NCBI GenBank assembly: GCA_051294375.1
Contig: CM119264.1
Location: 7,628,151-7,692,150, forward strand
DNA: 64,000 bases
Direction of reading: 5' to 3'
Source of the DNA: Paraspadella gotoi
Taxonomy: Eukaryota > Animalia > Chaetognatha
Part shown: in pieces, positions 12,989-58,824 of the stretch
Position numbering within the stretch: position 1 is the first letter of the stretch
How the letters are laid out: each line of letters begins with the position of its first letter
Program-made: the position numbers and the translations under genes
Notes under the pieces: model-generated
The model's database searches: none
What the model saw: the letters and a program-made list of their open reading frames with translations, nothing else
What the model was told of the DNA's origin: nothing

Positions 12989-13667
12989 TTTCTCCACTAA
13001 TAAAAAATATAAAAAGTTTCAAAGTATAATTTAATTAATTAGTCGAGCACGAAATCGATGACGGCGATTTACATAGTTGGCCTTGGACGCTCGCGTGGAA
13101 TAAAAAACCGAAGACGAAGAGAACAAAGAACATCTTTTTCAATTCCATATTTTTTTGTTAGTTTTTTCTGAACATTAAAAAAAAAAAAAAAAAAATTAAA
13201 AAATGTTTAAATCGTGAAAAAAAAAATCGGAGGTGGTAAACGAAGGTTTTTTGGGATTTTTGTTATGGGAACAAGTTAATTTCAAAGAGGGCGCTTTCGG
13301 TGTAACGATAAGGAACGCGTGTGAGAGAGGACGGCTATTCATTTATTACATATTAATTTATTTACTTGTTTTATTTCGGAATTAAATTTACTCATTTTTG
13401 TGACCATCTATTTAAAAGAAAAAAATCATTATAATAAAATTACGACAAAAAGCAATATAAAAGAACGATACGGAAAAGCAACAAAGCAAATGACTACTAT
13501 GATTCTTATTGGTAGGGTAACGCCTTTTTCATGATAAATATTTCTACAGCCTGCATACCCTGCGAGCTTTCAAGCAAGAGTCTCTCGCAGTCCGGAGAGC
13601 AACTGGCGGCACATTTAATGAATTAGAATCAAATTTTAATGAACAGTTTCGATTTTGCTCCTTTATA

Positions 13668-13900
13668 AAATTATCTATTCATTTTAAAAATAAGCTATCT
13701 TGCCCCTGACTTTGGACAGGCTTTGGTGGTTTGAGGCCTCCATCACTCTTACAAGATAATGACATAGCAAGTCCCTGCAAGCTTTCAATGAAGACTCTCT
13801 CACAGTTAAGTTTATTCATTCCCAGAGTACCTAGCTTCCCTATCAATGAAGTGGTATAATGTTTCAAAGAATATTTCAGTTGTATGAAAAGACCACTCCC
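13668..13900 (-). mobile_element. Dispersed repeat with twister-like motif, copy A (motif 13696-13758)
   Basis: Aligns over about 230 bp with 18310-18540 (opposite strand) and with 38755-38980. Confidence 0.8.
13696..13758 (-). ncRNA. Putative type-P5 twister ribozyme
   Basis: tatcttgt aa gagt GA-TGG aggcct cAA acc AC caaa g cctg T-CCA-AA-GT cagg g gcaagata. P5 is 8 bp, P4 is cctg/cagg, T1 is CCA/TGG and T2 is AC/GT. P2 is only 2 bp and P1 is reduced. Confidence 0.6.
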
Positions 13901-16900
13901 TTAATGTTATTATGAAAATTGCTAAATTAGTTGTTTCACTATTTTTATTTTTTTAAAGTAAGAGTAAGAGTGATGGAGGCTTAAAAGTGAGTTTGGTGTG
14001 TTTTGACGAAGCCACTGGTCTTTCTAGTATTTGATAGTCTGTTAAGTCAGCGTAAAGATTAATGGCCACTTCACAACACGACTCGATGACTTTGAAAGAT
14101 GATGACGACGACGACGAAATCCGCGGAAAACTACGATGACGATGATGACGACGATAATGACGGCGGCGAAAGTAACGGTTCGCTATATTGTCAAATCTTC
14201 TAATTGTGCTAGAAGACGAAAAACAGAGAAAATAACAAAGGTGACAAAGGTGTTTTAAATAGAAGTTTAATTAATGTCATTTATAATAATAAGCAGAATT
14301 TTCATAGGCTTAGTAATCAGAACTTGACACACAACAAACATTCCCCATTTTAACGACTCGTTTTAAAATCTAGTTTCTTATGGCGCGAACGATTTAGTGA
14401 ATCGATAAGATTTTAAATTGATTAAAACGACTGACCGATTGGTATACGAAAAACGGTGGATTAAAATGAAATTTCTCGGCCATCGACGACAACGACAACA
14501 ACAACGACTACGACGATAAAGCTCATGGAATACGACCCGCGGGAAGGTCAACCGAAAGCNNNNNNNNNNNNNNNNNNNNNNNNNNNNNNNNNNNNNNNNN
14601 NNNNNNNNNNNNNNNNNNNNNNNNNNNNNNNNNNNNNNNNNNNNNNNNNNNNNNNNNNNNNNNNNNNNNNNNNNNNNNNNNNNNNNNNNNNNNNNNNNNN
14701 NNNNNNNNNNNNNNNNNNNNNNNNNAAAATGAAGAGCGAAAAAAAAAACTGAAATAGAATTTGACGTCATCGAAGTCGGTTGATGATTTGGGACGGAAGG
14801 GGCTGGGGTGAGGTTCGGGTGAGCTCGGGGTGAGGCTGGGGAGAGATTGAGCAGAGTAGTAANNNNNNNNNNNNNNNNNNNNNNNNNCAATCTCTTCGTT
14901 CTCTCCTCTCTCCATTTCCCTCCCCTCTCTCCTCTTCTTCATCTCCTACTCCATGCTCCCTCCGCTATCCATCCGCACCCCTCGCCTCGCTCCTCGCTCG
15001 ACTCACCTCCCGCGCCTCCGTCCCACGTTCCTTCCTCATCCTCCTGCTCTCTCCTGTCTCCACATCCGTACTCTCTCCCCCTCCTTCTGATGCCTCTCCT
15101 CTCCCTCTCTCCGCTCTTCTCTCTCTCTCTCTCGTCTCTCTCTCTCTCATTGCCGGAGGTTGGGTCGGATGCCAATCTCGAGCTCGAGCCGCGCGAAGAC
15201 GAACCAACAAGCGCCATAAGCGCTTCCCTCTCTCTTCTACGCTCCTCACTTCTCTAACCCAGCCGTCGAAAGGTCGGAGAGTCATATCCGCGTCGGTGAC
15301 TCATCGAAAAAAATGTAGCAGAGATCCTCTTACCTTTCTCTAACCCGACCCGGGGCGATTCGCGCGGTCTACTCGGGTGTGCCGCCGAAGGAATCCGCGA
15401 AAACCACAATAATACATCTGAGTTCCGTCACATTCTCGACGTCCGAACTCAGTACTCCTTCTCATCTCAAACCTCCTCCTCTCCTCCTCTCCTCGCTTCT
15501 CGTCTCGTCTCCTGTCCCCGGCTCCAGCGCGCTCGCTCTACGTCGGTCCCTCTCCATCTCACTCTTGCTCATCGCTCTTCTCATCTCCCTCGTCTCTCCG
15601 TCTTCCATTCGCCTCCTATAGAGATCGTCCATTCTTCTACATATCTACTTCTCTTCCTCCACGCTTCCAACTATACGTCTTCTACTCTCTCTCCACCGTG
15701 AGTCACGCGTTGTCCTCTCCTCCGTGAACGCCGCCCATGGCCCACTCGATAGTCTCATCCGTGCTTCACTGGGGAGCCTCCCTCTCGGTTCTCTCTTCTC
15801 AGCTTCTCTCATCTCTCTCATCATATTTTCCAAACTGTTTTTTAAACCATTATTCCTTTCGGCGTCACAAGATTTTCCACTCCAACATATCTAAACTCTC
15901 GCCCGATCCTCTCCTTCATGCCCATCAACGAGTTTACTTACCGCCATACGCTTACCCGATTTACACTTTAACTCTACTCCTGCTCACGATCTCGTTCCCG
16001 GGCCAGCCCTCATCCCCGAGCTCACACTCGCGACACTTCATTTTCTCAACCCCCCCATGGCTCTGACATCCCTTCGTCCCAAATCATCAACCGGACTTCG
16101 AAGATGACGATCAAATCTCTAATTTCATTGTTTTTTTTTTTCTGCGCTTTCTTCCATTTTTCTTCCTGCACCTTCTAATTATCTCAGATCGTTTCGCTCC
16201 TCCTGCGAGAGAGGGATAGAGTCGCTGACTATAAATGGTTCATCAGGGCATAAATGAGGCCTTTAAGAGAACCATAAGCGAGAGGGAAGAAAACCCGCGC
16301 ATTAAATTACGGGTGAGAAAAGAGTCACTCACTCAAAAAATTCCACAATTATTTAGGTATATATACGTCAACGTATTGCTATTATACTCGTTTATTACCT
16401 AAAACAAAAAAAATAAAATTTTCAAATTTAACAGGCACGGTCGAATTTCTGCAATCGATGTTGTTGTCGCACCCCAACTTTCTGCAATTGCATTCGGCAG
16501 CGCATTCTCTTATGTCCCGAGCTCAGCTGATGTATGCATTTGTTGAATATTTTTAAATTAAACATAGGTTTTGTTTGCTACCGATTACGAACGACATATG
16601 CGTATTCACAAGGAAATTCGAAAAGCGATAACCATATTGTTTATTGTATAGATGTTTAACATTTTTAAACTTTTATCGGACGACGACTGCGACGACGACG
16701 ACGAAGATAAGGGCCATGTACGACTTCCACTTGAAAGGGAACGACGTTAAGAGCGATTAAAATCGTGACGACGATATCGAAGACGATGAGAAGTAGATGT
16801 CGAAATGACGACGCTAAATACGACGAAGTTGACGTCAACGACTCCAGCTGTTTCACATTATTCTTTCCCTTAAAAGGCCGAGCGATTTCTGGGGGGAAAA

Positions 16901-18269: not shown

Positions 18270-18540
18270 TATCTGGATGACCTTGCGCATAACAGTAACA
18301 GTCACATGCAGGGAGTCTTTTTATATAATTCAAACATTCTTTGAAACATTATACCACTTCATTGATAGTGAAGCCAGGTACTCTGGGAGTGAATAGAGGA
18401 GACTGTGAGAGAGTCTTGATTGAAAGCTTGCAGGGACCTGCTATGTCATTATCTTGTAAGAGTGAGTGAGGCCTTAAACCACCAAAGCCGGTCCCAAGTC
18501 AACGGCAAGATAGCTTATTTATTAAATGAATGGAAAATTT
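18270..18540 (+). mobile_element. Dispersed repeat with twister-like motif, copy B (motif 18450-18512)
   Basis: Same family as copy A. The 5' side runs into an N-gap. Confidence 0.8.
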
Positions 18541-18689
18541 TTAAGTTGGTTGCTCTTCAGTTGTTTTTTTCCCGGCATCACAATGAAAATTTTTTTCCTA
18601 AGCGACGTGCATTCCAACCCATAACCATTTCAATTTTATAATTTTATAGGACTTTCTTTCAAAGGACATTAAAGATAAAATACATTCAA

Positions 18690-21752: not shown

Positions 21753-23563
21753 CTCCAAGCGACGAAAAGATGAAAGATGAAGGACACAGATTTTCTCACC
21801 GTTTGTCTTTCCCCGATTTTTTGTCTTATTTTTTTTGTCCTCGCCATTTTTCACTGTGTCTTAGTTTTCTATCCTTTCCCCTCATTTTTTCACCTTCCAT
21901 TTGTTTTCTCTTGTTTTCAGTCACTGTCATTTTTTTAGTGTATTTTATATGTTTTTATATAGTTTATATATTCTATGTATATCTGAGGATAAATAGCTAA
22001 GTGGGGCTAAAGAGTGCTATCCGCAACTTCATTAACCCCCTCTAGCTGCCATGGATCGGGTCCTGAAGGTGTCATGCTTATAGGCAGGGTGAACTTGTGC
22101 AATGCCGACTACATACCTATATATTTTGTATATATTTTATTTATATCTTTTATTAGTTTGAGGCAAGAAAGGTTTTTATTATTGTTTACATATTTTGAAA
22201 CAATCATATGTAAAAAATAATAAAAACCTTTCTTGACTAAAACTATTATCAAAACGCAACGAATCGAAAGAATGAATGCGATAATAGATATTTTTATATA
22301 TTTTTCATTTATTTTTTTATATTGGTTGTATCAACTTCATAGGATTGTTCGATTCACGGAGCTGGAAAGACACACATCTCCCTTTGTTTGTTTTTTTCAA
22401 ACTATGTATAATTCAGTGGCTGATAGAAAAAGATTGATAGAAAAGTAGAGAAAAAAATATGAAGATAAAAAATAAAACTTAAAGTTGAATGAAAAAAAAT
22501 GGTTAAAAAAGGAGTTACATATAAAAACTTGATACGATTTATTTCCTATTGTTTAACTTTATCCTTTAAATCACCTTTTTTTTCTACCTCCCTTTCAAGT
22601 TTCAACGACTCTGTCTCTCTCTTTTTGTCCTACTCCCTCCCTCCCTCTTCCCTTATTTCCTCCTTCTCACCCTCTCGCTCTCCATTGATTTTTTCCGTCT
22701 CCTTCTCTCAAGATTGATGTTCTTTTTTTTCCCTTTCGATCGAATCGAAGCGAAACGAAAAGACAAACTTCGTCGCGTCGACCACAAAGTCGCGCCAGTG
22801 ACCGCTTCACGCAGCACTGTGCAGAGTGAAATGACAGAGCGCTGTGCGATGTTCAATGTTCGCAGTTCAATTTTTAATTTCCTATTAACGTAACCTTCGC
22901 AGGCACGTCATTGACTTTCAGCGGACTGCTCTCTTGATTAATATCGCTTCCCAACACTCTTTCCGATTGATCAGCTGGCTTGACTCTTCTTTGTTTTGTT
23001 TTTTGTTGTTGTTGTTGTTTTTGTTGTTTTTGTTTTTATTTTTGTGTTTTGTTCTTTGCTTTTCCAGCTATTACAAGAATGCTCGTTAAAGAAATTTGAC
23101 CTTTTTACACTTTTAAACTCACAGGCTCACATCTCACGCTTTAAAAGATCACATCATCAATTTCGCTCTGAATCGAGAAAATGTCCCCCACCTTATTTAA
23201 ACGTAATCTGTATTTTTTTTCTTTCCAGGGCTTAAAATGACGATATATATTCGTTTCTCCACTTTGCGCAACGCGCTTTAACGACCAGATGTGGGTAATA
23301 CGTACTCTGCATCTCATTATATTATTCATCATAATCAAAGCATAGGTTTCGTCGTATTGGTTGCATCTTTATCATGGTGGTCTCATTGTCATTTGGTTTA
23401 ACTTGGTTTGTACCTGGTTATTCTGTGATGATGTCGTGGTTTCACAAGAGCGAGAGACTTGGCTTTCATGGCTTCTATTTTAACTTCAAGTCTCTTTCCT
23501 AAACTTGTTCTAATTATCACGGTTATAGTGGTGGCTATCATCATCATCATCATCAGCATCATC

Positions 23564-24004: not shown

Positions 24005-24440
24005 AGAACAGCTTCATCTAATCCTTATCCAGCCACATTTTCAACCACATCCCGTCCTCAGCTTCATCTAGTCTTCATCCAATCTCACGTCTCAATCAAA
24101 TCCCATCCTCAGCTTCAGATAATCCTTATCCAAGCTTTCATATCAACCAAACCCCATATTCAGCTTCATCTAATTCTCATCCAAGCCTCATTTTGAACGG
24201 AATTCCACTCTGGGACTCAAATAATTCTCATCCAAGCCCCATTTTCAACTTGATCCCATCCTCAGCCTCAAATAATTCTCATCCAAGCCATATTTTCAAC
24301 TTAATCCCATCCTCAGCATCAAATAATCTTCATCCAAGCCACATTTTCAACTTAATCCCATCCTCAGCTTCAAATAATCCTCATCCAAGCTTAATTATAA
24401 ACTAAATCCCTTTCTCAGCCTCGTCTAATCTTCATCCTCA
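24005..24440 (+). repeat. 51-bp minisatellite, about 8 diverged units
   Basis: Unit aataattctcatccaagccatattttcaacttaatcccatcctcagcatca, which appears as a 17-aa repeat in the ORF track. Confidence 0.85.
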
Positions 24441-28402: not shown

Positions 28403-28693
28403 TCACGATCCGTCGGTCGCTTCCGAAGAGCCGAAGAGCGAGTCCAAGATTCGTTGCACCTCCTCCGTTTGAAGTTTATACATGATGAAGAAGAGGCTGA
28501 CCATTCCCACAGTGACGAAGATCCCGATAGCCGCGCAACGACGAGACTGCTTCCCAAGCAGGTAGGCATCCTTGGAGTTGTCCATCGCCGCCGCCTTCCG
28601 CGCCTGCAGGGCGCTCCAGATGGCGGCGCCGCCGAAGCAAATGTTGCAGAAGACGAAGACGAAGATTGAGAGAACGAGATGGCGTTGGACGTC
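28403..28693 (-). CDS. Terminal exon of a CD225/dispanin-family (IFITM/PRRT/SynDIG-like) membrane protein
   Basis: Translates DVQRHLVLSIFVFVFCNICFGGAAIWSALQARKAAAMDNSKDAYLLGKQSRRCAAIGIFVTVGMVSLFFIMYK...*. This has the CD225 layout: hydrophobic segment with FxNxCxG, a basic loop, then a TM helix. It is preceded by a pyrimidine tract and CAG acceptor (ctttccacacccag|GAC), phase 0. Confidence 0.85.
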   Translation of the reverse strand, partial: DVQRHLVLSIFVFVFCNICFGGAAIWSALQARKAAAMDNSKDAYLLGKQSRRCAAIGIFVTVGMVSLFFIMYKLQTEEVQRILDSLFGSSEATDGS

Positions 28694-28935
28694 CTGGGTG
28701 TGGAAAGGTGAAAGGGGGGTAGGGGAGAGGGTAGGGAAGGGGATAGGGAAGGGGGTAGGGCATGTCAGGCAACAAAAGACAAGTGGAAAGGGGTTAGATG
28801 ACAAAGAAGAAAAGAGGGGTAGGGAAAAGATTGTGCATGTCTCATCTTTTTCAAACGAAACTATGTACTATGTCAGAATGCATATATTGAAAATTATTTC
28901 TCGTCTATGCATAGCGTTAGTTTACGAAAGACAAC

Positions 28936-38463: not shown

Positions 38464-38754
38464 TTTAAAAAAAGACAATTAATTAATTTTCGAATCGATC
38501 TCTCAGTTTCCGCCGACTCGAAAGGCAGTTTATCCCCATGACGATAGAAGAGGGAATATTGATAACCGTTTAATTAAAATAAATTAATAAAATCTAATCT
38601 TTCCTCCTGATTTACTACTCGCTCGATACATTTTCTGTTTTCAGAAATCTGTCCTTTAAAATTATAAAAAAAATTCCCATTTTACATTGATCTAATTCAT
38701 TGTAGACATGAGTTAGTTTAAATACATGTAAATTGCATGAAATTATTATAACGA

Positions 38755-38980
38755 ATATAAACTTATCCGTTTTCTTAGATAAGTCTCAAGCTGTCTTCGG
38801 GCTATGCTGGTTTGAAGCCTCCATCCCTCTTATATGATAATAACACACCAGGACTGTGCAAGATTTCAATTAAGTCTCTCTCACAGTCAGGTTTATTACC
38901 TCCTAGAGTTTATGGCTTCCTGGTCAGTGATCGATGATAGGGTATAATGCATTTAAGTGCTGTTTAAATTGTATGAAATT
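38755..38980 (-). mobile_element. Dispersed repeat, diverged copy D
   Basis: Shares ggtttgaagcctccatc, tttcaat..agtctctctcacagt and ggtataatg blocks with copy A. The ribozyme-like loop is degenerate. Confidence 0.65.
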
Positions 38981-39169
38981 ATGTTATATATTATTCGTTA
39001 TATATAACGGAACGAAAATAAGAGATATATGTTTTAGGTTTTATGTTATATGTTATAATAAATTTAGTTAAGGGCCGAGAAGCTTCTCACAACAATCATA
39101 ATCAGTTTCATCCCCGCGGGGAGGAGAAAATTGTTCGATCCAAATATCGTTAGGTTTTGTCTGAGAAGA

Positions 39170-39430: not shown

Positions 39431-40101
39431 GTAGAGAGGCTTAGGAGAGAAATGAAAGAGGGAGAGAGATAAAGTAATCTTAAAGATAAAGGGAGAAAAG
39501 GAAAAGGAAAGTAAAAGGGGAGAGGGAAAATAGGGAATTCAAAAATTTGATGGAAAATTGATACTAAATAATTATTATATTGGTTGTACTAGTTTCATAG
39601 GAAGGAGAATATGAAAATAACCTAAAGAGATAATAAGCGTTGAGGAAAAACAGAAATGAGAGAAAACGAGGAATAAATTTGGTGGATCGAGACTAACGAG
39701 ACGAAAACAAATTTGGCCTCATTTATTTCCTTTTTTTGGGGCAGAAGCTGAAACGGTCATTTATGCAGCATCATCATTTATCGAACAACAACATCGAATC
39801 GTTTATGGCTAAATAATTGCTTGCGTCAACCAAAATCTCAGATTGCATCTGCTAAAAAGAATCACAAATAAACAAGCTTGAACTCATCAAGCAAAAAAAT
39901 AAAATAAAAAAAGCCCCCCCAAAAAAAAAAACCCCATAAAAACCGGAGACAGAAAACGACCACGGCCAGCATCGCGTCCGGCCAAACCATTTTCGGTCAA
40001 AAACGGAAATAACGTTTTCGCCCACTTTTAGGTATCAGCTTTCAATTTTCCGCTTCGTCCATTCCTGGCAATAATGTCAAAATGTTTTTTCTTCCCTCTC
40101 G

Positions 40102-40181
<80 letters not shown>

Positions 40182-41248
40182 TTCTTCTTTTTCTTCTCTC
40201 ATCTCTCAGCAATATTCTTCTCTTTCTTCCAGCCTTTTTCGACGATTTCGTGCTCATGTTCGTGGCACGTAGTAACAGGGAGCCTACAGAGGGGTGGCGA
40301 GCGTCTCAATGGCGCACCCAGACTCCGTGGGTTTGGAATGAGGCTTAAGTCCGTACGGAGTCATTACTGCCGAGGGACGGCTATTGACCTATTGGGTATT
40401 CATACTTTTACAATCGCGTATATTGCTAATCAGTTGCAACTTAGAACACTTATTGCTCTTTGAGCAGTTGATGGGAACAACCGAAAGAAAAAGCTTCCGA
40501 GCTCTACACAGTGTTTTACGTTATACTTTAATTAGAACACATATAAATTTAATTCATTTGTTGATTCTTTTCTAACTCATGACTTTATCTTTAACAGTGA
40601 CTATTTTGGTGACTTTGTTGTCTACTACGAATTATTTTATATTCTAAAATAGTTAAATAAAATTATTATTTTATATAATTTTAATATTTTTTTGTTTGTC
40701 TGGTTTTAAAATTGTTTTTACAAATTTTTTACTATATGAAAGCGACTGCCATTTCTGCGTGTCGTCATCTCAGGCTTTTTTTCTTCCTTACTTTCTTTTT
40801 TCTTTTTCCTTCTTTTATTTCCTTCCCCCAATTTTTCTGTCTCCGTCTTCCGTCTCCTATTTTTATGTCTCTACATATCGGTGTCCATTTTTCGAGCCAC
40901 CTCGAAACGACCGGCGTGAGCGCTTCACGATTCTCCGGGGCGCGCCCATCACCTCGTGAGACTCTCAAAGTTCGTCCAACTCTCGCCCAATATCGGCGCT
41001 CAAAACGACGAAAAATTAAAGACTAATTTTGAGCTTGTTTTTTGGCTTTTTTGCTCCTGACCTCCATAGAAAAAAGCATTAAAAAAATTAACTCGTTTGA
41101 ATTGTTCACACTCAATTAAAGCTTAAGTTTTGTCCATATTATAGCGACCAAAACATTTTGAAGGCGCGCCCAAGCCGAGGCCAGCGATCGGTGCCACGCC
41201 CCAAACGACCTTTTTCGTTGCGGNNNNNNNNNNNNNNNNNNNNNNNNN

Positions 41249-44090
41249 GATCATAGAGCAGACATGATACTTAGGTAAAACGGAATTGAGGGAATATAAA
41301 GGGTAATAGAACAGAGGGAACTCTTGAAGGAAAAAAGAAGCGAGATGCATAGATTAAGAGGAACGCAGAGGGGACTTATATAAAAGGATAATTATAGAAT
41401 ATGCGCTATCTAGTAAAATAGAACGCGTTGGAGTATAAAAGCAAACATCGAAGATAAGGCGCAATCTTAATAGCGCACAAGAGTTTAAGAGATTAAAAAG
41501 AATAAATAATGGCAGAGAGGACGAGGAAAACGCACTCAATCAGATGAAGAGGACATAGGAGAGAAATGAATAGGAGCAGCAGACTAACGTATGCATTAAC
41601 GATACAAGGGAGAAAAGCGACACACAGCGAACAGGAAAAAGGGGATAGGAAAATAAGGGAATCTGCAAGGCAACTGTGTACCGTAGGAGAATGGATACTA
41701 AATTAATTACTCCATCACTCCTGGATTTTCGCTATTCTCACGTATTCTCACTCATGGCAAGCGAATCAGATATGAAAACTACACTAAAAGAGACTAATAG
41801 AGCGTAGACGCGGAAAACAAAATGACCGAGAAACGAGGACAATACAATATTGGCATACGACTCGAGACCTAACGAGACCGAACAACAAATTCCATATCGG
41901 CCATCATCTTATCTTCCCTCCTTTTTTCATAGTGCACGCATTCATGCTAATTCCTCTCTTCCGCTGCACTTAGACGAGTAACATTTCTATGCGCCGCCAA
42001 TATAATCACCATTTATCCGAACCACACACATCTAACTTATAATCGAGGAGGACCTAAGCTACATCTGCTTTATAGGTCAACCAGTACATGATAACTTATC
42101 AATTGCACTCTGCATACGCAACCCAACGAATCATCAAAAAATGGAAGTATACCCAAAAGCCACTCTGGGAACAGGAGACAAAACAAGAAACCAAAAAAAA
42201 TAAAATAGCAAATAAAGGACTATAACAAAAAATTTTAAACAGGCCCTCGTTCCCATTCTTCGGGATCCCTACCCACAAACAAAAAAACCAAATCAACGGG
42301 GCGGAAAACGCGGAGACAAGAAAACTGGACCCACCGCAAGCACGGGCCGTCGGGATCATCGAAAAAAAGATGGCCGGTCGATCAGGAGCAATCGCGTCCG
42401 GCCAGAACCATCTTTCGGTCAAAAATCGGGAAACCCTAACGGTTTCGCCGGTGCACCCCTTTAAGGTTATCGGGACACGCTTTCAATTTTTCCCGCTCCA
42501 TCCATTCCTGTCTAATAATGTCAAAACCTGTTGGTTTTTCTCTCCTCCTCTGGCTTTCTCTGTCTCACTCTTTCACTCTCTCTCTCCTCTCCCTACTCCT
42601 CGTCGAATCCGCTCTTCTCTCGTCCTATCTCTCCTCATCGCTGATCACTAGACTCTCTCCCTCATGTCACTCGTCATTTCTTCACCCTTCTGTCTTCCTT
42701 TCTATACCTATTAGCTGACTCTCTCTCTTCTTCTTTTTTTTACTCTCATCTCTCAGTCCTCATTCTTTTCTTTTTCTTTCTCCATTCTCCAGTCGCTTTC
42801 TCTCGCACGATTTGCCGTGCTTTTCTCATGTTCGGGCACCGTAGTAACAGGGAGGCTTTACAGAGGCGGTTGGCGAGCGTCTCAACTGGCGCCACCGTCA
42901 ACTACCGTGAGGTTTAGGAATGAGGCTTATAGCTCCGCTACAGAGTCATTACTGCGCGAGGAGCGGCTACTTGAGCCTAATTGGGTATTCATAACTTTTA
43001 AATCGCGGCGGTAATGTGTCTAATCAGTTGGCAGACTTAGAACCACTTATTGCTCTTTGGAGCAGATTGATGGGAACAACCGGAAAAAGCCAAAGTTCGA
43101 GCTCTAACACAGTGTTACGATTACTTTAATAGAACTACATAAAATTTAATTCCATTTTTGATTCTTTTCTCTCCATGACTTTTATTTTAACTGACTATTT
43201 TGGGTGACTCTTCGTTGTCTACACGAATTATGTTTATATTGCTAAAATAGTTAAAATAGAAAATGAAAAGTAATGCAGTGGTAATTTCTGAGAGAGCGTA
43301 TTTTCTCGTTTCTATGCTGTTTTTATCATTTTTATTTTAACAATTTTATTTATTACCTTATATGTGGAGGGGAATGCAAGGCACCCACTCCGCCAATTGT
43401 TCTCGTTATGCGTGTCGTCATGCTCTACCGCTACGGGCCGTCGGGAGAAGGGACTCGGAGCCCAAGCTGGGCTTTGTTTTCTCTTACCTGCCTGACCCGA
43501 GGGTCTTTGTTTTCTTCCTGTTTTCGCGTTCTTCCCCTTATTCTCCCTGCTCCTCTTCATTTATTTCTTGTCTCCCTTCTTCCGTCTCCATCATTTTTCA
43601 CCTGTATCTACATATCGTGTCATTGGTCGCTGTCGAGCGCGAACCCAGCGCGTAACCACGCCGATGCGGTGACACGGGCGGGTGGTGCCGGAGTTTTGCT
43701 GCCCGGGGCGCGCCATCAGCGATTAGTCCCACCCGGTCGTGAGGAGCGGCTACAACGTTACATACCAACCTCTCAGCCCAGGGATATTCTCCGCGATAAA
43801 CGAAGGCTAAAAATTAAAGTCTAAATTTTAAGCTTGTTCTTTTGTTTGGCCTGTTTTATTGAGCTCCTGACCCCTAGGCCGATAGAAATTAAACGCATAG
43901 AAAACAAATTAATAGCACGTTGATTCGTGCAAGCACTGCAAGGTGTAAAGGCCTTAAGTTCTTTGTCCATAATATAGCGTTTACCTCAAAACATTTTGGA
44001 AGGCTCGCGCGACGCGCAGAGCTGCGAGGCGTTCTTCCCAGCGATCTTGCGGCATAGCACGCCCGCAAACGCTGACACGCATTTTTCGGT
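41249..44090 (+). other. Error-rich direct duplicate of 39175-41223 (probable assembly artefact)
   Basis: Collinear with the preceding 2 kb but expanded by scattered small insertions. Starts right after a 25-N gap. Confidence 0.85.
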
Positions 44091-46255: not shown

Positions 46256-49200
46256 TGGTTTCTGGACTGGCGTTCGTTAGATCTTGCGATTGAAACGCAG
46301 CGGGGAGAGAGAGCATGAGTTGAATCGTCAGGGAATGGGAAGTAGAGCGTGAAAAGTGTCTTTAGCTCAGCGAGGGAATGGCCGAGAAGATTTTTAGAAT
46401 CCGGTTTGCACGATCCATAGTAAACAATAGTGCAAAAAAAACATGTACGTAAATTACATTACATTAGATTATACATATGATTATATTTAGAGTTATCCAA
46501 ACAATTATCTTTGAAGTGGCTAAAAGAAGTCTGTAAGTAATATGCGAAAGATAAGGTAGGAAAAAAAAACTGAAAGTGATTAATGATGTGAAGATAAGTT
46601 ATGGTGAAGGGGAACAAAATTTTCAAATACTCTGAATGAGAGAAGGATAGTAATAAACCGTGAAAGAAGGAATTGTGTGTAAAAGGAAGTATAAAGGCAA
46701 TTTCGTTGATGTATGACAATTGAAAGGCAATTGCAGTCAAACTTTAAAGAGATAAGATAGCTCTAAAAAGAGATAAAATTGCGATGGGACTGTAAGAAGG
46801 TGAGTTGATAAAAGNNNNNNNNNNNNNNNNNNNNNNNNNCTTTAATATTCTCCTCTATCTCTTCTACTCATCCTCTCTTCTCTCTCTCTCTCTTCCCTCT
46901 CCTTCTCTCTCTTCCCTCTCTCTTCCTCTCTCTCTCTCTCTTCTCTCTTCTCTCTCTCTCTCTCCGCGACATTTCCCGGTTCACACTTCTCTCATCTAGC
47001 CCCCCCCCCTCTTCCTTCCTTCCACAGCTACTTCCTTTTATCAACTCACTTCTTGCCCTCGCCTATGCATTCTTCTGTTTTGAGCTATCTTCTCTCTTAA
47101 ATTGACTGCAATGGCCTTTCATTGTCATACATCAACGAAAATTGCCTTTAATTATCTTTTACACACAATTCCTTCTTCACGGTTTATATCCTTCTCCATT
47201 CAGAGTATTTGAAAATTTTGTTCCCCTTCACCATACTTATCTTCACATCATTACAACTTTCAGTTTTTTTCTCCCTTATCTTTCGCATATTACCTACAGA
47301 CTTCTTTTAGCCACTTCAAAGAATCATGTTGGATAACTCTAAATATAATCATATGTATAATCTAATGTAATGTAATTTACGTACATGTTTTTGCCTATTG
47401 TTTACTATGGTCGTGCAAACCGATTCTAAAAATCTTTCGGTTCTGGGTGGTGATTTCACTTATCCCCGCTTCCTGGCCGCTTGTGTTCTCTATGATCTGA
47501 GCCTTTACTTCTTTCTTCTTTTCCATTCTTTTTCTTTTCGATTTACCAAAACACTTAACTTCATCCGCCCTCTTCCTTTCTGTCCGTCCAAGCAAAACCC
47601 ACCCATCACTCACACTTCCTCCATTCCCCCGCCCTTCCTCCGACCTCCTTCGCTGCCCTATACCCTCTTCGCCGTATTCCCACCAACCCCTCTCTCCTCG
47701 CTCCAATCTACATCCCTCCTCTCGTCCCTCCTCTCCTTTCTTAACCCCCCTCACCTCCCCGCTCCTCTTCTCCACCCTCTTCACATTTCACACTCCCGTG
47801 CCCCACTTCCCCCACTGCTCCTCGCAACTCACCCCCGCCACACCTCATGCCGCGCAGTCTGACTCATCACACCATCTGCATCCAAACTGAGAGCTCTGCA
47901 CCTTATTTCGTACCCACTGATTTCCCGCCGCCCTCTTCTTCTCTTCATGCTCTCTCTTCTGGGCTATTTACTTGAGGGTTTGCTATTTCCTTTACTTCCT
48001 TTATTCGGTCCTCCAGTTATATATACCGCTAAACAACTCTAACATTCAAATCCCTTCTCCCCTTCTTTCTTATCTATTCTTCTCTCCTCAACACTCCTTT
48101 TTTTTCCGTAACGTCTCATTCCTTCTCTTTGCCCCTTTCTTTTTTCCTGCCATCCCTTTCTTCACCTCAGCACTCATGCCCCATTCCCGTCTGACCATCC
48201 CGACTTCACCTTCTCCCTGTTCGGGTTCTTTCTCTCCCTTCTCTTCTTTTCCTTCTCTTCTTTCCCTTTCTCTTTCTTCTTCCCTGCTTACTTCCCTTCC
48301 TACCTCTCGGGTTTTTATCTCTCTTCAGATCCTTTCAAATTTCCCCTAACGGGCGTATCCCCTTACCTTTAACTGCCCTGACTTGACCTATTTGTTTTCT
48401 TCCCTTCTCCCCCCCCCTCCTCTCTTGCCTTCTCTCTTCCTCTCCTTTTTTTTCTTCTTCCCTCCTCCTCTCCTTTTTCTCCCTTCTCCTCCCTCACCCT
48501 CCTCCTCCTTCTCTCTCTCTTTCCCCCTCTTCCCCTTCTCTCTCTCTTCTCTCTCTCTCCTCCCTCCTCCTCTCCTTCATCCCTCCTCCCTTCTTCCCTC
48601 CTCCCCTCTTCCTTTCCCGCTTCCCCCGCTCCTCTCTCTGCCTCCCCCTCTTCTCTCTCTCTCCTTCCCTCTCCCTCTCCCCTCCTCTTCCTCTCTCCCC
48701 TCCCCTTTTTTTCCTCCCCCCTCCTCTCCCTCTCTCCTCCTGCCCTCCTCCTCCTCTTCCTCTCTCCTCTCTCCCCCTCTTCCCCCTTCCCCGGTCCCCC
48801 CCCCCCTCCTCTCCCTTCCCCCCCCCCTCCTTCCCCCCTCCCTTCTCCCCCCTCCCCCCCCCCTTCCCCCCTCCCCCCTCCCCCTCCCCTCTCCGCCCTC
48901 CTTTTTTCCCCCTCTCCCTTCTCCCCTCTCTCCACTTCTCCCTCCCCCCCTCCCCTCCCCTCCCCCACCCCCCCCCTTCCTCTCCCCCCCCCCCCCCCTC
49001 CCCCTCTCTCCCCTCCCCCCGCCCCTCCTCTTCCCCATCCCCCCCCCCCTCCCCCCCTTCAAACTACACGGCAGCTGCCCCACACGCCGTGTGTATACCC
49101 CAGCACACAGTGCATGAAGGTACGAGGAGGCCAGGTCAGCAGGCAGCGCACGACCCCCACATATCAACGGACGCCGCCAACGGAGAACCCTCACACAAAT

Positions 49201-49723
49201 ATAGGGGAGGATTGCCGACTGAGGAAATCTTAATTCAGTGGAGACATCGATGAATGTAGTTGGGAATCGCGACGGCGAACGTTTTTATTTTTAAAAAAGG
49301 ATTTTTAATTCTTTTAAAAAAATGAATGTAAAGGAGAATGTTTTACATTAGAAGAGTTTAAATGGAGAAACGTTTTTTAAGAAAGATATTACGTTTTGAG
49401 TAAAACGGGACAGCGTCCAAGTGGAACTGGCGTTGGCTTTTCTTTTTTAAAGGGTTTATTTTTCTTGGTCCAAAATATTCCGTTGACGTTAAAAATCATA
49501 TTAATCTGTTTACTCTCTCTTCTCTTCTCTGCTCCTCTCTTCATCTCTCTCTTCTCACTCTCTCTCTCTCTCATCTCTCTCTCTCTCTGCTCTTCTTTTC
49601 TCTTCTTCTCTCTCTCTCTCTTCGTTTTTTCTCCCCTGAATACGAATGGGATGTCTATTTCTTTATTACTCTGTTATTGTGACGGAGATTGCCTGGAGAG
49701 AATGTAAAGACAGCAGCGAGAGA

Positions 49724-49771
<48 letters not shown>

Positions 49772-51902
49772 ACACGCGCAACCTGAGCGCTACTGTACCA
49801 GAAGACGTCGCGTAATATCGTTGGACGTCTAAATCTTACAATAATGATTGGGGCAATTCCTCTTGGCGTCTTTCCGCGGGGGGAAAAGAATGGCGGATGA
49901 TGACAATAAAGAGAGAGGATAAGAAGAGAGAGAGAGAGAGGGAGAGGGAGTAGAGGAGGTAGAGAGAGAGAGAGAGTGGAGAGGAGAGAGAGAAGAGGAG
50001 AGAGAAGAAAGAGAGAAAAGAGAGACAAACTCATAGAATAGGACACGAAACAAAGGGATAGAAGGAAAAACTACTTTGATCGAATTCAACTCCAATTGCG
50101 GTGAATTTTTTTTATTTTCATTCAGTTTCATTCACTCAGTTTTTTGCTTCACTAGTCATATTCTTCATTATCTTCACAAAGAGTTATCATGATCGATGGC
50201 AGTATATCAGTCGGCGATGACGTAGATGACAGTGGGTAGGCCGACAGACAAGACAGACTGACATTTAGATGGATAGACAAACAGGCAGTATAATGTACGA
50301 AAATTTTAGACAGACCTTTTCGACAAAAAAAAGGCATGAAATTCATAAAAAAAAACATAAAAAAAGAAAAAAGCCGGCGAAACGTTTTTTACTCCCGCAA
50401 CTGACGCAGAGTCCGCGAAACTTGTCTAAACGCGATTGAATTTTTCATTCTCGAGGAATCTGTTTATGGTTTCTCCTTTCTTGTTACCGTTTAATGTTTT
50501 TTTTTTTTTGTTTTCCCCGCGGGAGAAAAAAAATGAGGAGGACTCCAGCGGTCGACCTAATGAAAAGAGAGAACAGGTGGCTTTCACCAGATGCCAAAGG
50601 GGACTCGTGGACAGGTGCATGAAAGATGAGCGAAACGAAACGAAACGAAAGAAGATGCAGGAGTATGGTTAGGAGTATGGATAGGGTCATATTTGGCGGG
50701 GGGGTGTGGGTTTTGAACTGTCGCAGTTTGGGCTTTTCGACGAAAAGGACCGAATGAAAAAAAGATGTTTGGAACTGAGGATATTGAAAATCCAATTCGT
50801 TCTCAAGATCTCCAAGGATTTAAAATACCGTTTTTAATAGTCTAACTTCCTTTACAAGGAATTACAAAAAACGTAAACAGATGGCGGGGAAAGGTAGTCA
50901 ATTTATACGACTAAATTACAATGAACTTCTCTTTTTTTTTGAGCTGTAAAGAAAGTTAACTAACGGAGACAAATGGCCGATAATAAACTCGGCCGACTGA
51001 GTTGAAGTCTTTCAACTCGAGCGACGATAAAAATAAAACAAACTGCGAAAGCGATTTGCTCCCGCGTTCGTCGCACTATGAGAAACCCATATTTCATTCT
51101 TGTTTTTCACCGCGTGAAGGGACGCCTATTCAGTGAATTCAAGGGAGAAAGTGAGCCGAGTTTTTCGTAGGCAGTTTTAACTTTTAAAGAAAAATAGAGG
51201 AAATAAAGTCAGTTTACAAAAAAGAATTTAAATATAGAGAAATGGCTTAAAACCTTCAGGTTTGCATGGATGATTAAAATAAAAAGTTAAAAACTTTCAA
51301 TACACTGTGATCAGAATCGGTAAAAGGATTTTAAACAATATTTTAAGGTTGGTTGGGTTGAATTAGACTATATACAAAAAAACTGATAAAGCTCATCACA
51401 CACACGGCCAAAGCAAGGACGACTTGTCTGATGAAACGAATGAAATGAATGAGATTCGTTGGGGAATCGAATTTAGATTTGCATTTTGTCGAGTTTTCAA
51501 GGATTTTTAAAGAAAGAAAGAGAGAGAGAGAGAGAGAAAGCGAGAGAGAGAGAGAGAGAGAGAGAGAGGTTAATACAATTATTCTATCAGAGGGTAAACA
51601 AAGTACGAGCTCACACACAAGAGTTGAACCTGAAAGAAGAAAAATTACGCGAAAGGAAAAAGGCGGAAAATAGCAGCCATAAAAGGAGAAAAAGCGTCAG
51701 ACGAGTTCAACGCTCTCGAAGATAACGACGCAGGAAGAAATATTGATTATTGATGAGAGGGAGAGAGAGAGAGACAGATAGAGAGAGAAAGTGAAAGAGA
51801 GAGAATGTGTGTGTTTCTAAACGCCTCGTTTGAATGAAAAAGTTTTTTAGTGAGGTTATTAAGATTTATTTTTACGATTATAACAGTAGAATAGAGAAAA
51901 GA

Positions 51903-51963
<61 letters not shown>

Positions 51964-52189
51964 TCGAAATGCCGAAATCCGTGGCGTGGTTTATTCTTTC
52001 ATAGTTTCTTCTCTTGGCGCAAAACGCGGGAATAATTTTCATCCGAAGAATCCCGGATGTAGCCCCGTATGTGGGAGGAAGTCAATGGCGAGGATCGCGA
52101 TTTCTTTTTTTAGTCCAGCGCGGGTTGTCGTCGTTTTTGTTCTTATCGTCGTCGCTTTCCTCGTCCCGGGTCAGGTGAGAGCCAAGGCT

Positions 52190-52745
<556 letters not shown>

Positions 52746-53699
52746 GNNNNNNNNNNNNNNNNNNNNNNNNNNNNNNNNNNNNNNNNNNNNNNNNNNNNNN
52801 NNNNNNNNNNNNNNNNNNNNNNNNNNNNNNNNNNNNNNNNNNNNNNNNNNNNNNNNNNNNNNNNNNNNNNNNNNNNNNNNNNNNNNNNNNNNNNNNNNNN
52901 NNNNNNNNNNNNNNNNNNNNNNNNNNNNNNNNNNNNNNNNNNNNNNNNNNNNNNNNNAAAAAAATTAATATTATCTCTTTTGAGATTGTCAAGTCATTCT
53001 GTGAAAAGGTTTCTCTAAAAATATTATCATTAATTTTTAATAAACAATAAAGTTTTCTTTTGATATTTCACCCTGCACGAAATATAAGAACCAATAAAAC
53101 CTCTACATAATATTAAGAAAACAATGAAAAAAATATCAGCGTTCGTCAGATTTTAAATAATTGCTTCAAACTGTATTGTTTATACGGCGCCTTGGCTTTC
53201 GTCAGGTATTTTTTTTTCTTGCACCGACATTTCTCGCTTTAAAAAATAAAAAATTAATATGGATGGAAAACAAATGATAATCAGCCAATTAATTTAACCT
53301 TTGGGAATTTCAATTTCGAATGATTTTTCGTTGGTTCTGCTTACAGCAGATCTCGGCTCTATAATTCACTTTGTCCGTCCGTCGGTCCACCCCCACAATC
53401 TTGTCAGAATCATCTCACAATATCGAATTATGATAAATTATGCAAAAAAAATTGAGATCCGTCCGCCGGCCGTCCATCCGTATGTGGGTAAGAAACTGTG
53501 CGATTGAGCTGGAAATCAAGTTTTGATGGAATCAACTAAGTGGAAATGAGATTATTTTTTATTAAAGCAAGTTGCAATAATTATTCAAACAATAAAAAAA
53601 AATTTAATCAATTAATTTATAAATCAACCAATTAATTATTCAATTAATTTATGAATCAACTAATCAATTCATTTATTTATCAATCAATTATTAAAATAA

Positions 53700-54150
53700 C
53701 TAATTAATTAATTAATCAATCAATCAAACAATGTTAGAATTATCATTGTCGTCGTCGCCATCATCATCGTTCTTTCTTTTGTCGTGATCAGTGACCTGAC
53801 AAAAATATTTAAAAACAAACAGGTTTGTAATGTTTGTTAACTCAATGGCTGATATGAATTTTATTTAATTTAATAACTAGTTAATTAATCAATCAATCAT
53901 TTAATTAATCTTGACGGTGTTATGGTCGTCGTCGTCATCATCATCATCATGGTCTTCGTTTCTTTTGTAATAACGAAAAGACAAAAAGACTTAAAAACAA
54001 ACACGTTTTATCAAACAATCCCGGAACTGATCAGTTACTTAATTATTCAATCAATTAATCAATTATTCAATCAATCAATAAAAAAATCAATCAATCAGTC
54101 AATTAGTTATCATCGGTGTTATCATTTTCGTGGTCGCCATCATTAATTAT
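53700..54150 (+). repeat. Degenerate tandem repeat with a period of about 180-190 bp (2.5 units)
   Basis: aatcaatcaatca...ttatc/gg..gtcgtcg(c/t)catcat...tttcttttgt...ttaaaaacaaaca recurs near 53710, 53890 and 54085. Confidence 0.6.
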
Positions 54151-54287
54151 TTAATTTAATCATTCAATTAAATAATTTATTAATTATAAATTAAAAAATT
54201 TACTATTTCATTATGCTTTTTTATAATGCTCGATTTTTTTTCTCATATTATAAAATTATGATATAAGTTATGTTATAAACTAAATTT

Positions 54288-54329
54288 AACGCTAATGAAG
54301 ACTTAAATGCAAGCCGAAACATGTCCGTT
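54288..54329 (+). ncRNA. Degenerate minimal type-I hammerhead ribozyme (Penelope/retrozyme type)
   Basis: aacg CTaATGA a gactt aaatgc aagcc GAAAC at GTC cgtt. Stem I is aacg/cgtt, stem II has one mismatch, and stem III is the palindrome ACATGT. The core carries a G5-to-A change. AATAAA lies just downstream. Confidence 0.6.
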
Positions 54330-54363
54330 TTTCTTCTGAAAAATAAAAATCGTTGTCGAAATT

Positions 54364-54530: not shown

Positions 54531-56323
54531 ATTTACATATTAATTAATTAACTAATTAATTACCGCTAATGATCGTGGGCAGATCCGACATTGTTTGCTC
54601 AAACTTGTTTTTTTTTAGTATCATTATCTGTTCTTGTGAAAAAAAGAAGCGAAAGCCTCTTACGTCGGTTCCAGTTCCACTTGGTATTCTCTCTGCCTAC
54701 GAAATCTGCGAAAAAAGGTGAGGTATTCAGGGTAACGACTCAGGTAAGTGTCTCCTTATCTCCTACAGAAATCCGAAAGTTAGACGTGAGCAACATACAG
54801 AAAAAATGAAAACTCTCTCTATATCTTTTTCTATCTTTCTCTCTTTCTCTTTTTAAATCTTTCTCTCTTTCACTCTCTCTCTCTTAGACTTTTGATAATA
54901 TTTCCTTTCTTCTTTATATCTACTGCTCGCTGACCTTTTTTTTGTTATCAACGTATCTAATTGTAATTTAAAAATTACGTTATATCGAAAAGTTTTTATT
55001 AACTGATAAAAACTTATACTTTTATCTGAATTAGTTTTTATGAAATTGGTACAACCAATATAAAAATATATAAATATATTATTTACGTTTAGTAAACTAA
55101 TTGTTAATTTTCCTTTTTTCCCAGTCGAGGACGTTTTTCTATTTTCCTCCACTTACGAGTAACGACCGGCCACTTTGTTCTCTTTAAACTTTTTTTGCGT
55201 TTCGATATTTACACTCGCCTTTCTAGCTAACCTAGACCTCATCATTACTGATAAGATATAGTAATAATAATAATAATAATAAAGTCAGGTCAGGTAAAAG
55301 CCTGAATTTAGTTTAGAGACGCCGCAGAAGCAGAATTTTCAGGATGCAGCGTTTGTCTTTTGTTTCAAAATACAATCATAGTCCTATCCTTTCAAAAGTC
55401 GATAGAGGGCAACCGTTATCAATATTTATCTAATTTTAAAATGAACACGATTTTAACGCAATTAGGTAAACAAAAAATTCTCGATAGGAAAAGCGAATGA
55501 CAATCGACTTCAATTAATAAAAATACGTATTTAGAAAAAAAAAACATAAGCAAGTCTACCCTCCCGCCACCGTAATCCGCTAAGCAGGGAAGGCCTAGGA
55601 CCTCTGACCTAGGTACAAAAATTAACTCCCGGCAAAATATAAAAGATTTTGAACAAAGGTGGAAATTCCTAGTAACGATGTACCGTGTTCTGTCTTGCAA
55701 GGCCGACTAACTTCCGTAAGCAGGGACCGGAAATTCGTTGATGATTGCCCATGAGACAGTGACGAATGACGATGCCGACTATGATTTTTCTTGTATAACC
55801 TTTAATATCTTTTTATCGGGTTGCATTAAAAATATTAAAACTATATCACCAGAAAGCCCTGAAAAAATACTATTCGATTTACACTAAATTTTATATAAAA
55901 TGATAAGAAAAAGCTTATAACAATTTTTTTTTTTAAATTAATTTTATTTAAAAATTTGCCAGTTGAAAAAATTTAAAAACTAGCATAGGAATGTGACTAG
56001 TTTCACGAATGGGTTCTTTCTGTTCTAAAAGTCGACAAAGGGTTACGCCGTGCGACTATGATACTGCCGACGAAAAAAAAACAAACAAACCAATCCAACA
56101 TTCACTTTCTAAAATTAATAACAAAAAAAATCAAACAGGATATAGCATTTTTTTATGTACTAACTTAGGACACGGCATCGCATCGATCACGATATTATGG
56201 ACCCCGTCATTTAGTCTTAGGGACGAAGCCTGAATCTGTCGGCAACACAAAAACCAGAATAAAAAAAATATATATACAATATATATATATATATATATAT
56301 AATGAAATAACGAGGGAACTTGC

Positions 56324-56435: not shown

Positions 56436-56560
56436 CTGACATGAATACAAAATAATGGATAAATCACTAATGTCAAATATATCATATATTATAAAAGAAT
56501 ATATATAATATATATAATTATATATAATAAATAATAATAATATATATTATATATTACAAA

Positions 56561-56648
56561 TTATCTTGTGAGTGATGGAGGCCTTAAAACACCAAAGCCA
56601 GTCCAAAGTCAGGGACAAAATTACTTATTTATTAAATGAATGGATAAT
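56561..56648 (+). mobile_element. Dispersed repeat, 5'-truncated copy C (almost only the twister-like motif)
   Basis: ttatcttgtgagtgatggaggccttaaaacaccaaagccagtccaaagtcaggg...ttatttattaaatgaatgg. Confidence 0.8.
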
Positions 56649-57960
56649 CAAAACTTGTCGAAATCGTTTCGATTGATTTACAATTAATAAAAAGCCGAAA
56701 ACTAATTCCAGCCTATTTTTGCGCAGTTATTAAACAATACGTTGATTCGTCCGTCTCGGGTTATATTTTTTAGAAATCCCCACTACATAGAATACGTATT
56801 CAGATGAACATTTCTCCCTTAAAATTAGATTTACTATGACCAATAATCTCTATTGTACATGGACTTACTTTGACATTGTTGCGCCGTGGCTGTTTGGAAA
56901 AGCAAGGAAAAAAACGCGAAAAACAAATATTTTAATCATGATTCTTTCGTCCAACGTCGTTTAAGTTTTTTATTATAAGTTTTGTTTTTTTTTTTTTTTT
57001 TTTTCTACCTGTATTAGTACTAATGCCGTAACGAAAAACTTTTTTTACACTTTCCAACAAACAGGTTTTAAACTTATGTGGGATTTGTACAAGCGGTTAA
57101 TTACTATTTAGGTAGTGGGTGTTTTTTTAGTTTTCGGCATAACTATTTAGCCTCATTTTCGTATTTAATTTCTTTAATGACTTTGCATGGTTTCTTCTTC
57201 TCCGATGGGTTCATAGGTGAGTAAGAATAAAGAAAGGAAAAGTATTAAACAAACATCAACGTGAGAGCGTACAACAATAAAGAAAACATTAGGAAGACAC
57301 TTGTAGAAATCAAGATAAAAATAGAGAAAGAAAGAGAAAGAGAAAGAAAGAGAGAGAAAGAGAAATCACTTTTCCTCTGTCTCTCTCTCTTTCTATATAT
57401 ATAATCTCTTTTTCTCTTTCTTTACTCTTTCCAATGTTCCCTCTCCTTTTCTACCATCCCCACGCAACCGTCCAATAAAATCCCGCCATAAACAACGAAG
57501 TATAAAGTCTTCCTCTTGTAATTTATTCAACGTTAAAATCCCATAAAACCCTCGTCGGCTCCAATTAACTCATAACTGCGTCACTTTATCGCCATTTTTT
57601 TTTGTTACCTCGTTGACGTTAAAGTTTCATGCCGCCGTCATCGTGCCATCTTACAAAATGAGGCCGGAATTGCAGTGATGCGCCGTCGACGACGAAAAAA
57701 TTTATGCAGGAGCAATAAATTTATTTTTTCACTGCGAGAGATTCTTTGTCTTTGCCTTTGGTCAGTTACGTTCCATTGGATTCCATTGAAAAGTGGACTA
57801 GGGTGGATAATCTCTCCTTTCGTGTCGGTTGACATTCGGGGTCAGAGAAAAGTAGGTGAACATGCGACTCCGTCGGTCGGAGGAGAAGATATTTTGTGGA
57901 AAGGGTGAGAGAAGGGCGACTGGGGTGAAGAAATAGACTCAATGACCATTCATCATGTAG

Positions 57961-58050
57961 AATTATCGATTCATTCAATAAATAAAATAAATAACTGAAT
58001 TTTGACAGGCTATGGTGGTTCAGACCGCCATCTCATTGACAATATAATCC
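57961..58050 (-). mobile_element. Dispersed repeat, diverged truncated copy E
   Basis: Minus strand reads gatggcggtctgaaccaccatagcctgtcaaaattcag...ttatttattgaatgaatcgataatt, sharing the family 3' end. Confidence 0.6.
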
Positions 58051-58824
58051 TGCAACAAAAACCAGGTAAGTCCGGGTGACAAGTGTGATTAATTAATAGG
58101 ATTACTTTTGAGAATGGATTATATTTAAGCGTAACATTTTTTAAAGGAATTTATAAGTTTCACGATGCCAGTGAATTTTTTTTTTCCTTGAAATCCTTTT
58201 TATTTTTGTTCCTTTACATTTCTTTCCACGTCCCTTTCTTTTTACAAACCTTTTTTTCATTTATATTCCTTTTTATTTTCATTTATTTTCATTCCTTTCC
58301 TTTTTCTTTCCTCGTTCGTTTGTTTCCTCCGTTTCTGTTTTCCTTTCACCTCTTTGATCTCNNNNNNNNNNCGTAAGAAAACACAAAATTTAATCCGCTT
58401 TCCGACTCTTTGCCATATTTGGTCTTAACAACTCTTCCATCGCCAATCTAATGCCGTTTCTTTTTTTAACACTCATCGTTTTAACATCGTGCCACTCCTA
58501 ACACCGCCAATTGCGAGTCTGACATCAACATTATAAATGAGAGTTGCATTATTTAACTGATTCCGGTATCTGAATGTATCTACTATTCTCAGTACATAAC
58601 CGTAAAATAACATCACCTCTCCAACATTTCGCCATCCCCTTCCCATCTTTTCCCCAGCCCCAGCCCCATCTCGAATCCGACCCCGACTCAAATTCAAATT
58701 CCTACGGGCGACCAAACGTGACTGACAACAAAAGGAGTGAACGAGGGAGACCAGAAAGGAAGAAGGAGGAGGAGGAGGAAGAGGAGGAGAAAAAAGGAGG
58801 AAGGAGAATAAAAAAAGGGGAGGA

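Follow-up and report, generated by a model that had tools for sequence, protein, structure and literature searches.

Probable Naiad-type retroelement 3′ ends in Paraspadella gotoi with a predicted type-P5 twister ribozyme that may cut as a palindrome-paired dimer

Introduction

Twister ribozymes have been described in animal retroelements at the 5′ ends of RTE elements (PMC8501958), as found for the T-variant twisters of Schistosoma Perere-3, which belong to type P1 and in which an imperfect P1 is completed by the target DNA (Liu et al. 2021, PMC8501958). In published twisters, the pseudoknots T1 and T2 are formed by GGG/CCC and GC/GC, respectively (PMC8501958). Helix P1 was found to be dispensable in a model twister, its deletion leaving near wild-type rates (PMC5408937), and natural twisters cope with defects in P1 and P2 and accept any base at position −1, with P1 defects being without effect among the 1,948 natural type-P1 twisters scored (PMC11662667).

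Self-cleaving motifs are also known from Penelope-like elements, whose pseudo-LTRs carry minimal type I hammerheads near the 3′ end. In these, only a short palindrome is left of the helix beside the cut, and cleavage as dimers was proposed and weakly shown (Cervera and de la Pena 2014, PMC4209133; PMC6765202). The Naiad clade of Penelope-like elements is described as being without canonical hammerheads, forming tens of thousands of 3′ ends and preferring (TA)n sites (Craig et al. 2021, PMC8557442), and the main text of that study never mentions twister. A third group comprises the animal non-LTR retrozymes, which are non-coding units arranged in tandem repeats, bearing type I hammerheads and producing circular RNA (PMC7229834; bioRxiv 10.64898/2026.07.22.740005).

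The DNA analysed here, referred to as the window, is a microsatellite-rich and gene-poor stretch of 64,000 nucleotides from the chaetognath Paraspadella gotoi. An initial annotation had noticed in it a dispersed repeat carrying a permuted twister with a palindrome in the place of P1, and had proposed a non-autonomous, retrozyme-like element. The best reading of the present results, to which a probability of about 0.6 was assigned, is that the repeats are 3′ ends of Naiad elements with a type-P5 twister that probably cuts as a palindrome-paired dimer. Like the Perere-3 motif, the module of the window would be an imperfect-P1 twister in what appears to be an animal retrotransposon, whereas it is of type P5, lies near the 3′ end and is internal to the copies. 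It shares with the minimal hammerheads the position near the 3′ end and the short palindrome on the cut side; the two are unrelated ribozyme classes, so the likeness would be convergent, and dimer cleavage of the present module is predicted from its sequence. With the animal retrozymes it has in common a non-coding unit of similar size, low GC content and, by prediction, a self-cleaving motif, although no tandem array or hammerhead was found for the window repeat.

No report of a Penelope-like element bearing a twister of type P5 or a dimeric twister was found in the literature searched; the supplements of Lunse et al. 2017 and Roth et al. 2014 may list such variants. For some members of the Naiad clade, the module is a testable candidate for what takes the place of the hammerhead. 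If the reading is true, it would be a natural dimer-gated twister, of which no printed account was found.

The Repeat Family

All five copies and the one fragment that had been claimed for the family were found in the window, together with three solo tails:

13667..13904, minus strand: best-kept copy (13.7 copy), 96% identical to the majority letters of the family, its tail missing the final ~24 nt present in the family
18304..18552, plus strand: second long copy (18.4 copy), module at ~18450-18512, UAA present, P4 broken and T1 with a mismatch
~38729..38982, minus strand: old decayed copy (38.8 copy), with 18-nt direct repeats at its ends (17/18 identical), 236 nt apart
56560..56648, plus strand: short copy (56.6 copy) comprising the module and part of the tail, one P4 mismatch
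57958..58056, minus strand: old decayed short copy (58.0 copy)
13964..13986, plus strand: inverted fragment, with 60 bp between it and the 5′ end of the 13.7 copy, ending 2-3 nt past the predicted cut
55039..55062, minus strand: solo family tail (extreme 3′ end) within AT-rich DNA
22318..22341, plus strand: solo family tail, decayed
39576..39599, plus strand: solo family tail, decayed

The 38.8 and 58.0 copies were only 72-73% identical to the family majority. The claim of a 63-nt module shared by five copies consequently held in full for the 13.7 copy, in which the module was found with all its pairings, whereas P4 or T1 was broken in the 18.4 and 56.6 copies, and the 38.8 and 58.0 copies were decayed. 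The inverted fragment at 13964-13986, a single case, ends where a copy of the 5′ cleavage product would be expected to end.

Contigs from four sequencing runs of the same organism (X1, X3, X5 and X8) were aligned to positions 13600-13960, revealing 9,660 contigs on the repeat in X1, 11,019 in X3, and 3,578 and 677 in the other two runs. The summed depth in X1 and X3, which is not a copy number, was ~38,000 times that of the flank at the module and ~6,000 times that of the flank near 13890, and the family was taken as comprising tens of thousands of copies. In all four runs the 3′ end was fixed, in that a common tail of ~24 nt beyond 13667 was followed by non-specific AT-rich letters, while the depth fell towards the 5′ side, where the copies were truncated. 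A common sequence continued upstream of 13904 in 46, 56, 26 and 7 contigs of the four runs. The family is longer than first described, its 3′ end being fixed ~24 nt past 13667 and its 5′ side extending further than 13904. No tandem copies of the repeat were found in the window, and no joints going back on themselves were seen among the 15 of 78 joints listed.

A young subfamily behind the 38.8 copy was sought and rejected, with only 8-71 contigs aligned at 84%. As a separate observation, the segment 13558-13592 on the minus strand, 75 bp from the 13.7 copy, was a diverged fragment of the family's upstream UTR. A 7-bp stem with a loop ending in GAAA (13775-13805 in the 13.7 copy) was kept with changed pairs in that fragment and in the 38.8 copy. 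Two candidate structures upstream of the module were rejected: a hammerhead relic (CUG-UGA ... GAAA), whose stems I and II were absent by eye, and an "anti-ribozyme" helix, as strong in 449 of 1000 shuffles.

The Twister-Like Module

The module of the 13.7 copy, delimited by a pairing check and by its match to the Rfam family RF02684, comprises the following parts:

13696..13758, minus strand: type-P5 twister-like module, 63 nt
13751..13758, minus strand: 5′ strand of P5, with 8/8 pairs to 13696-13703
13745-13748, minus strand: 3′ strand of P2
13743-13744, minus strand: GA with the predicted general-base G, a role taken from published twisters
13740-13742, minus strand: T1 strand UGG
13734..13739, minus strand: palindrome AGGCCU in place of helix P1, with 14 Rfam model positions deleted
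13726..13733, minus strand: (U/C)AA, the 5′ strand ACC of P2 and the T2 strand AC; cut predicted between 13733 and 13732 from published twisters
13705..13720, minus strand: P4 hairpin CCUG/CAGG with the loop UCCAAAGU, which holds the T1 partner CCA and the T2 partner GU

The P4, T1, T2 and 8-bp P5 pairings proposed beforehand were all confirmed in this copy, being complete in P5 (8/8), P4 (4/4), T1 (3/3) and T2 (2/2), the latter two by Watson-Crick pairs. P2 and P4, with its 8-nt loop, were both present, and the GA and UAA of L1, which would supply the catalytic G and A, stood in the type-P5 order. The P1 hairpin was absent and a 6-nt palindrome occupied its place, as had been proposed; among random 6-mers, 1.9% are palindromes. 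When the window was searched with a generic descriptor of type P5 that required a 2-bp P2 but fixed no letters in T1, T2 or P4, the 13.7 site was the only one found, compared with 0.007 sites per shuffled window, and when a 6-bp P5 was also required no site was found in 300 shuffles. Without the P2 and P5 requirements, the descriptor also recovered two unrelated window sites and matched 8 of 20,000 unit shuffles.

In Rfam scans of single copies, Twister-P5 (RF02684, clan CL00120) was the top match in three of three, with 21.0 bits for the 13.7 copy (E 0.0064 on 76 nt), 12.3 bits for 18.4 and 20.2 bits for 56.6, all below the gathering cut-off of 37.6 and obtained on 76-nt stretches chosen after the fact. 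The 14 P1 positions were deleted in the alignments of both the 13.7 and 18.4 copies. Rfam scans of the whole window and of a 601-nt stretch (13500-14100) returned no twister.

Further support came from a search with an unpaired-core pattern that fixed one P4 pair only and no P2 pair. Its 13 matches, in 12 viral loci, were all Rfam Twister-P5 above the cut-off and carried long P1 hairpins. P4 had all its pairs in 12 of the 13, and so had P2. Because these matches exceeded the Rfam cut-off and nearly all had P2 and P4 intact, the combination of UGG/CCA with AC/GU can be regarded as a real twister subtype, shared by the window module. The T1, T2 and P4 changes relative to published twisters (UGG/CCA and AC/GU instead of GGG/CCC and GC/GC) had been interpreted as compensatory, an interpretation that these results support. 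Twister type P5 and the window module agree in the element order, the GA and UAA of L1, the 8-nt loop 4, T1, T2, P4 and the short P2; they differ in that the P1 of the module is a 6-nt palindrome, its host is a eukaryotic repeat and its score is below the cut-off. Among 104 canonical viral type-P5 matches, the 82 in which both P2 and P4 were intact have a corresponding spacer of 14-39 nt, and intact matches of the same subtype have one of 16-29 nt. The type-P5 identity given to the module from the outset was upheld by the top RF02684 match, the intact pairings and the Rfam-positive phage twisters with the same core, and, judged from the sequence, the module is very probably a twister core.

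Short-P1 relatives were sought in prokaryotic collections, which hold little animal DNA, and 18 matches with a spacer of at most 11 nt were found (4 metagenome, 13 viral and 1 genome), none of them palindromic and none with P2 and P4 both intact. Two viral type-P5 cores (L020:301-334 and L026:301-331) kept P4 with P1 down to 5 and 2 nt, respectively, and a broken P2; both are probably decayed. In addition, type-P5 twisters were clustered in three phage contigs (L002, L087 and L095), with three to five of them per contig in a stretch of 1-1.6 kb.

The variation among the contigs bore on individual letters of the module. The substitution 13733 G>A, which places U before AA, accounted for 97-99.6% of the depth in all four runs. 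UAA is the family majority, and the C of the 13.7 copy a minority letter. Among the 40 of 59 variants listed, the sole module variant above 10% was at 13703, where a U-G pair of P5 becomes U-A and pairing is kept, and the AGGCCU palindrome had no common variant. No excess conservation of the module was found in the same list, with common variants at 1 in 63 nt versus 6 in 146 nt upstream (p 0.68). The sole covariation among the window copies was a double change in T1 of the 18.4 copy, which is itself decayed; this evidence is weak, and the change is not among the listed family variants.

Relation to Naiad Penelope-Like Elements

The retroelement context of the repeat, also part of the initial annotation, was supported by its 5′ side, which contains a probable end of an ORF:

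13876..13904, minus strand: inferred last ORF codons and TGA stop (13878-13876), reading KGVVFSYN-stop, with Naiad ORF-end likeness by eye

Over a consensus of 30 letters (agreement 0.63-0.85), the sequence beyond 13904 was open in frame with KGVVFSYN-stop, the K codon being seen except for its first letter. At the far end of this continuation, Y-N-I was read in X3 and X5, and S, not Y, in X1 and X8. A Y-N-hydrophobic motif was thus located 18 residues before the stop, a spacing that by eye matches that of K-Y-N where the ORF ends in Naiad_CGi, Sglo and Naiad-1_Pfla. In total, ~19 terminal codons were readable, and these were Naiad-like by eye.

The published Naiad consensus ends (supplement of PMC8557442) were inspected by eye over the last 350-430 nt of 52 of the 54 families. 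Five of the 52 showed the twister-like fold, namely Naiad-1_Movir, Mgal, Mphi, Scon and Mmer, in the order P5, short joint, P2, GA, T1, two palindromes, NAA, P2, T2 and P4. The palindromes in the place of P1 were perfect, 8-12 nt long and different in each of the five families. P4 and T2 of Naiad_Mgal were letter for letter those of the window repeat. Naiad_Mgal and Naiad_Mphi had a 3-bp P2 with a bulge, in a register that also fits the window repeat. The P2 of only 2 bp stated earlier for the window module can be written as 2 bp plus a mismatch, but three base pairs and one bulged A describe it better, in the register read by eye in these two families. The window locus would represent the most reduced form of this fold, with one 6-mer and no P3, compared with two palindromes in the Naiad twisters and a P3 in the four bivalve ones. 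The fold was not seen in the other 47 of the 52 ends viewed, in which longer UTRs may hide it.

Besides the twister-like fold, the window repeat shares with the Naiad clade (PMC8557442) the abundant short 3′ ends, the AT-rich flanks, the lack of a canonical hammerhead and, by eye, the ORF end and the UTR length. Very many 5′-truncated 3′ ends in AT-rich sites are a Naiad-like trait common to other retroelements and thus not diagnostic. In contrast, the EN/RT ORF, the pseudo-LTR tandems and the tail structure of Naiads were not seen in the window repeat, which presented one inverted fragment beside a 5′ end and no full element within the window. Of the 354 filtered frames of the window, 150 were compared with Pfam, and no RT or GIY-YIG endonuclease was found among them; short-motif searches gave no DNA-level match to Naiad consensi, and no hammerhead was matched by Rfam up to E 10 on 13500-14100, with the reservation that Rfam may miss minimal forms. 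From the ORF end, the UTR and the fold together, the repeat is likely to be the 5′-truncated 3′ end of a Naiad-type Penelope-like element.

File S5 of PMC8557442 also contained a different conserved 3′ UTR motif with a short palindrome, found in the CGi, Sglo, Olur, Tgra, Pmar, Skow and Pfla Naiads. This oyster, scallop-like and hemichordate motif may be another unrecognised ribozyme.

Dimer Cleavage and Alternative Explanations

The 3′ end of the element would consist of the last ORF codons, a 3′ UTR of ~230 nt and the tail, with the twister core sitting in the UTR. Reverse transcription would start at the tail, with insertion into AT-rich DNA, and would mostly stop within a few hundred bases, leaving short ends, and tail priming and early stopping have been described for Penelope-like elements (PMC11167929). 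The cut is predicted at U/AA, ~90 nt before the element end, a distance comparable to that at which hammerheads lie in Hydra-clade elements. Within a transcript of tandem (pseudo-LTR) structure, two copies of the UTR would swap strands, and each active site would obtain its P1 from the common duplex of the 6-bp palindrome. Poor cutting would be expected of a lone terminal copy, which fits with copies spanning the site uncut.

The contigs showed no depth step at the predicted cut site, indicating that templates were mostly uncut there. In fold predictions without pseudoknots, two modules formed a strand-swapped dimer with P4 and P5 present, the P4 probability rising from 0.07 in the monomer to 0.99. 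Control permutations of the stub limit the weight of this prediction, since 17 of 156 non-palindromic permutations stabilised the dimer as much and 48 of 180 gave as little monomer P4. Single-strand folding without pseudoknots gave no z-score below −0.6 for modules or units, and the twister-like two-dimensional fold lay 6 kcal/mol above the monomer minimum. Dimer-favoured cutting by the predicted ribozyme is therefore favoured somewhat beyond even odds, mainly because self-complementarity recurs with different letters at the same place across Naiad relatives and because copies span the site uncut. A more specific proposal is tentative, and falls slightly short of an even chance: Naiads would carry a permuted twister with an independently evolved, palindrome-gated dimer switch, and the family of the window would be the most reduced form, an obligate dimer cutting tandem transcripts only. 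The 63-nt module offers a ready construct for an assay of monomer versus dimer.

Cutting by the monomer is possible since P1 is dispensable in the model twister. The same element could then carry a natural mini-twister, in which AGGCCU does no more than link T1 to the cut site through a 1-bp stem and a four-base loop, being palindromic by coincidence. The near wild-type rates after P1 deletion (PMC5408937) and the harmless P1 defects of natural type-P1 twisters (PMC11662667) agree with this explanation, and the stub is short enough to be palindromic by chance at the 1.9% given above. It is nevertheless rather unlikely: five Naiad families each carry a different perfect palindrome of 8-12 nt at this very place, the missing depth step suggests mostly uncut templates, and the monomer is predicted to misfold P4 when folded without pseudoknots.

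Less probable still, with odds of roughly one in ten in our estimate, is a non-autonomous, retrozyme-like unit of ~240 nt, in which twister cleavage would be followed by circularisation and then by reverse transcription through a Penelope-like partner. The unit size is that of animal retrozymes (PMC7229834), which have been argued to derive from pseudo-LTRs (bioRxiv 10.64898/2026.07.22.740005). The cut site lies within copies, and the 38.8 copy, with its 18-nt end repeats 236 nt apart, looks as a copy slightly longer than one unit would, although this is one old copy. The unit also holds an open 73-codon frame without a credible protein match, its single match being a spurious ankyrin-repeat protein, and the frame was rejected as a protein. 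The retrozyme-like interpretation of the initial annotation was not supported, however, given that neither the window nor the 15 of 78 joints listed held tandem units, that a fixed 3′ end with non-specific flanks speaks against a circle, that the depth falls 5′-ward, and that a common ORF-like continuation with a Naiad-like ORF end lies upstream.

Finally, it is very improbable that the fold is a twister-derived relic or structural motif that has lost its cutting activity and acts at most as a signal for protein binding or priming in the element, for most of the family retains the catalytic G and A together with both pseudoknots despite several compensatory changes relative to published twisters, even though the module showed no excess conservation, its twister-like fold lies above the monomer minimum, and hammerhead cleavage of a Poseidon element was not needed for insertion in vitro, with no reads ending at the site (PMC11167929).

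Other Features of the Window

Three further observations were made outside the repeat family. An exon-like frame at 28406-28867 on the minus strand contained a CD225/dispanin domain (Pfam PF04505, 29.6 bits), with no close homologue found. Local duplications of 50-430 nt with 76-95% identity, adjoining N gaps, were located at 39971-43222, 49197-60048, 46382-47440 and 4560-4891/31600-31831, and may be either recent duplications or haplotype or assembly artefacts. A tandem array with a 51-nt unit, in ~8 copies, occupied 24009-24437.
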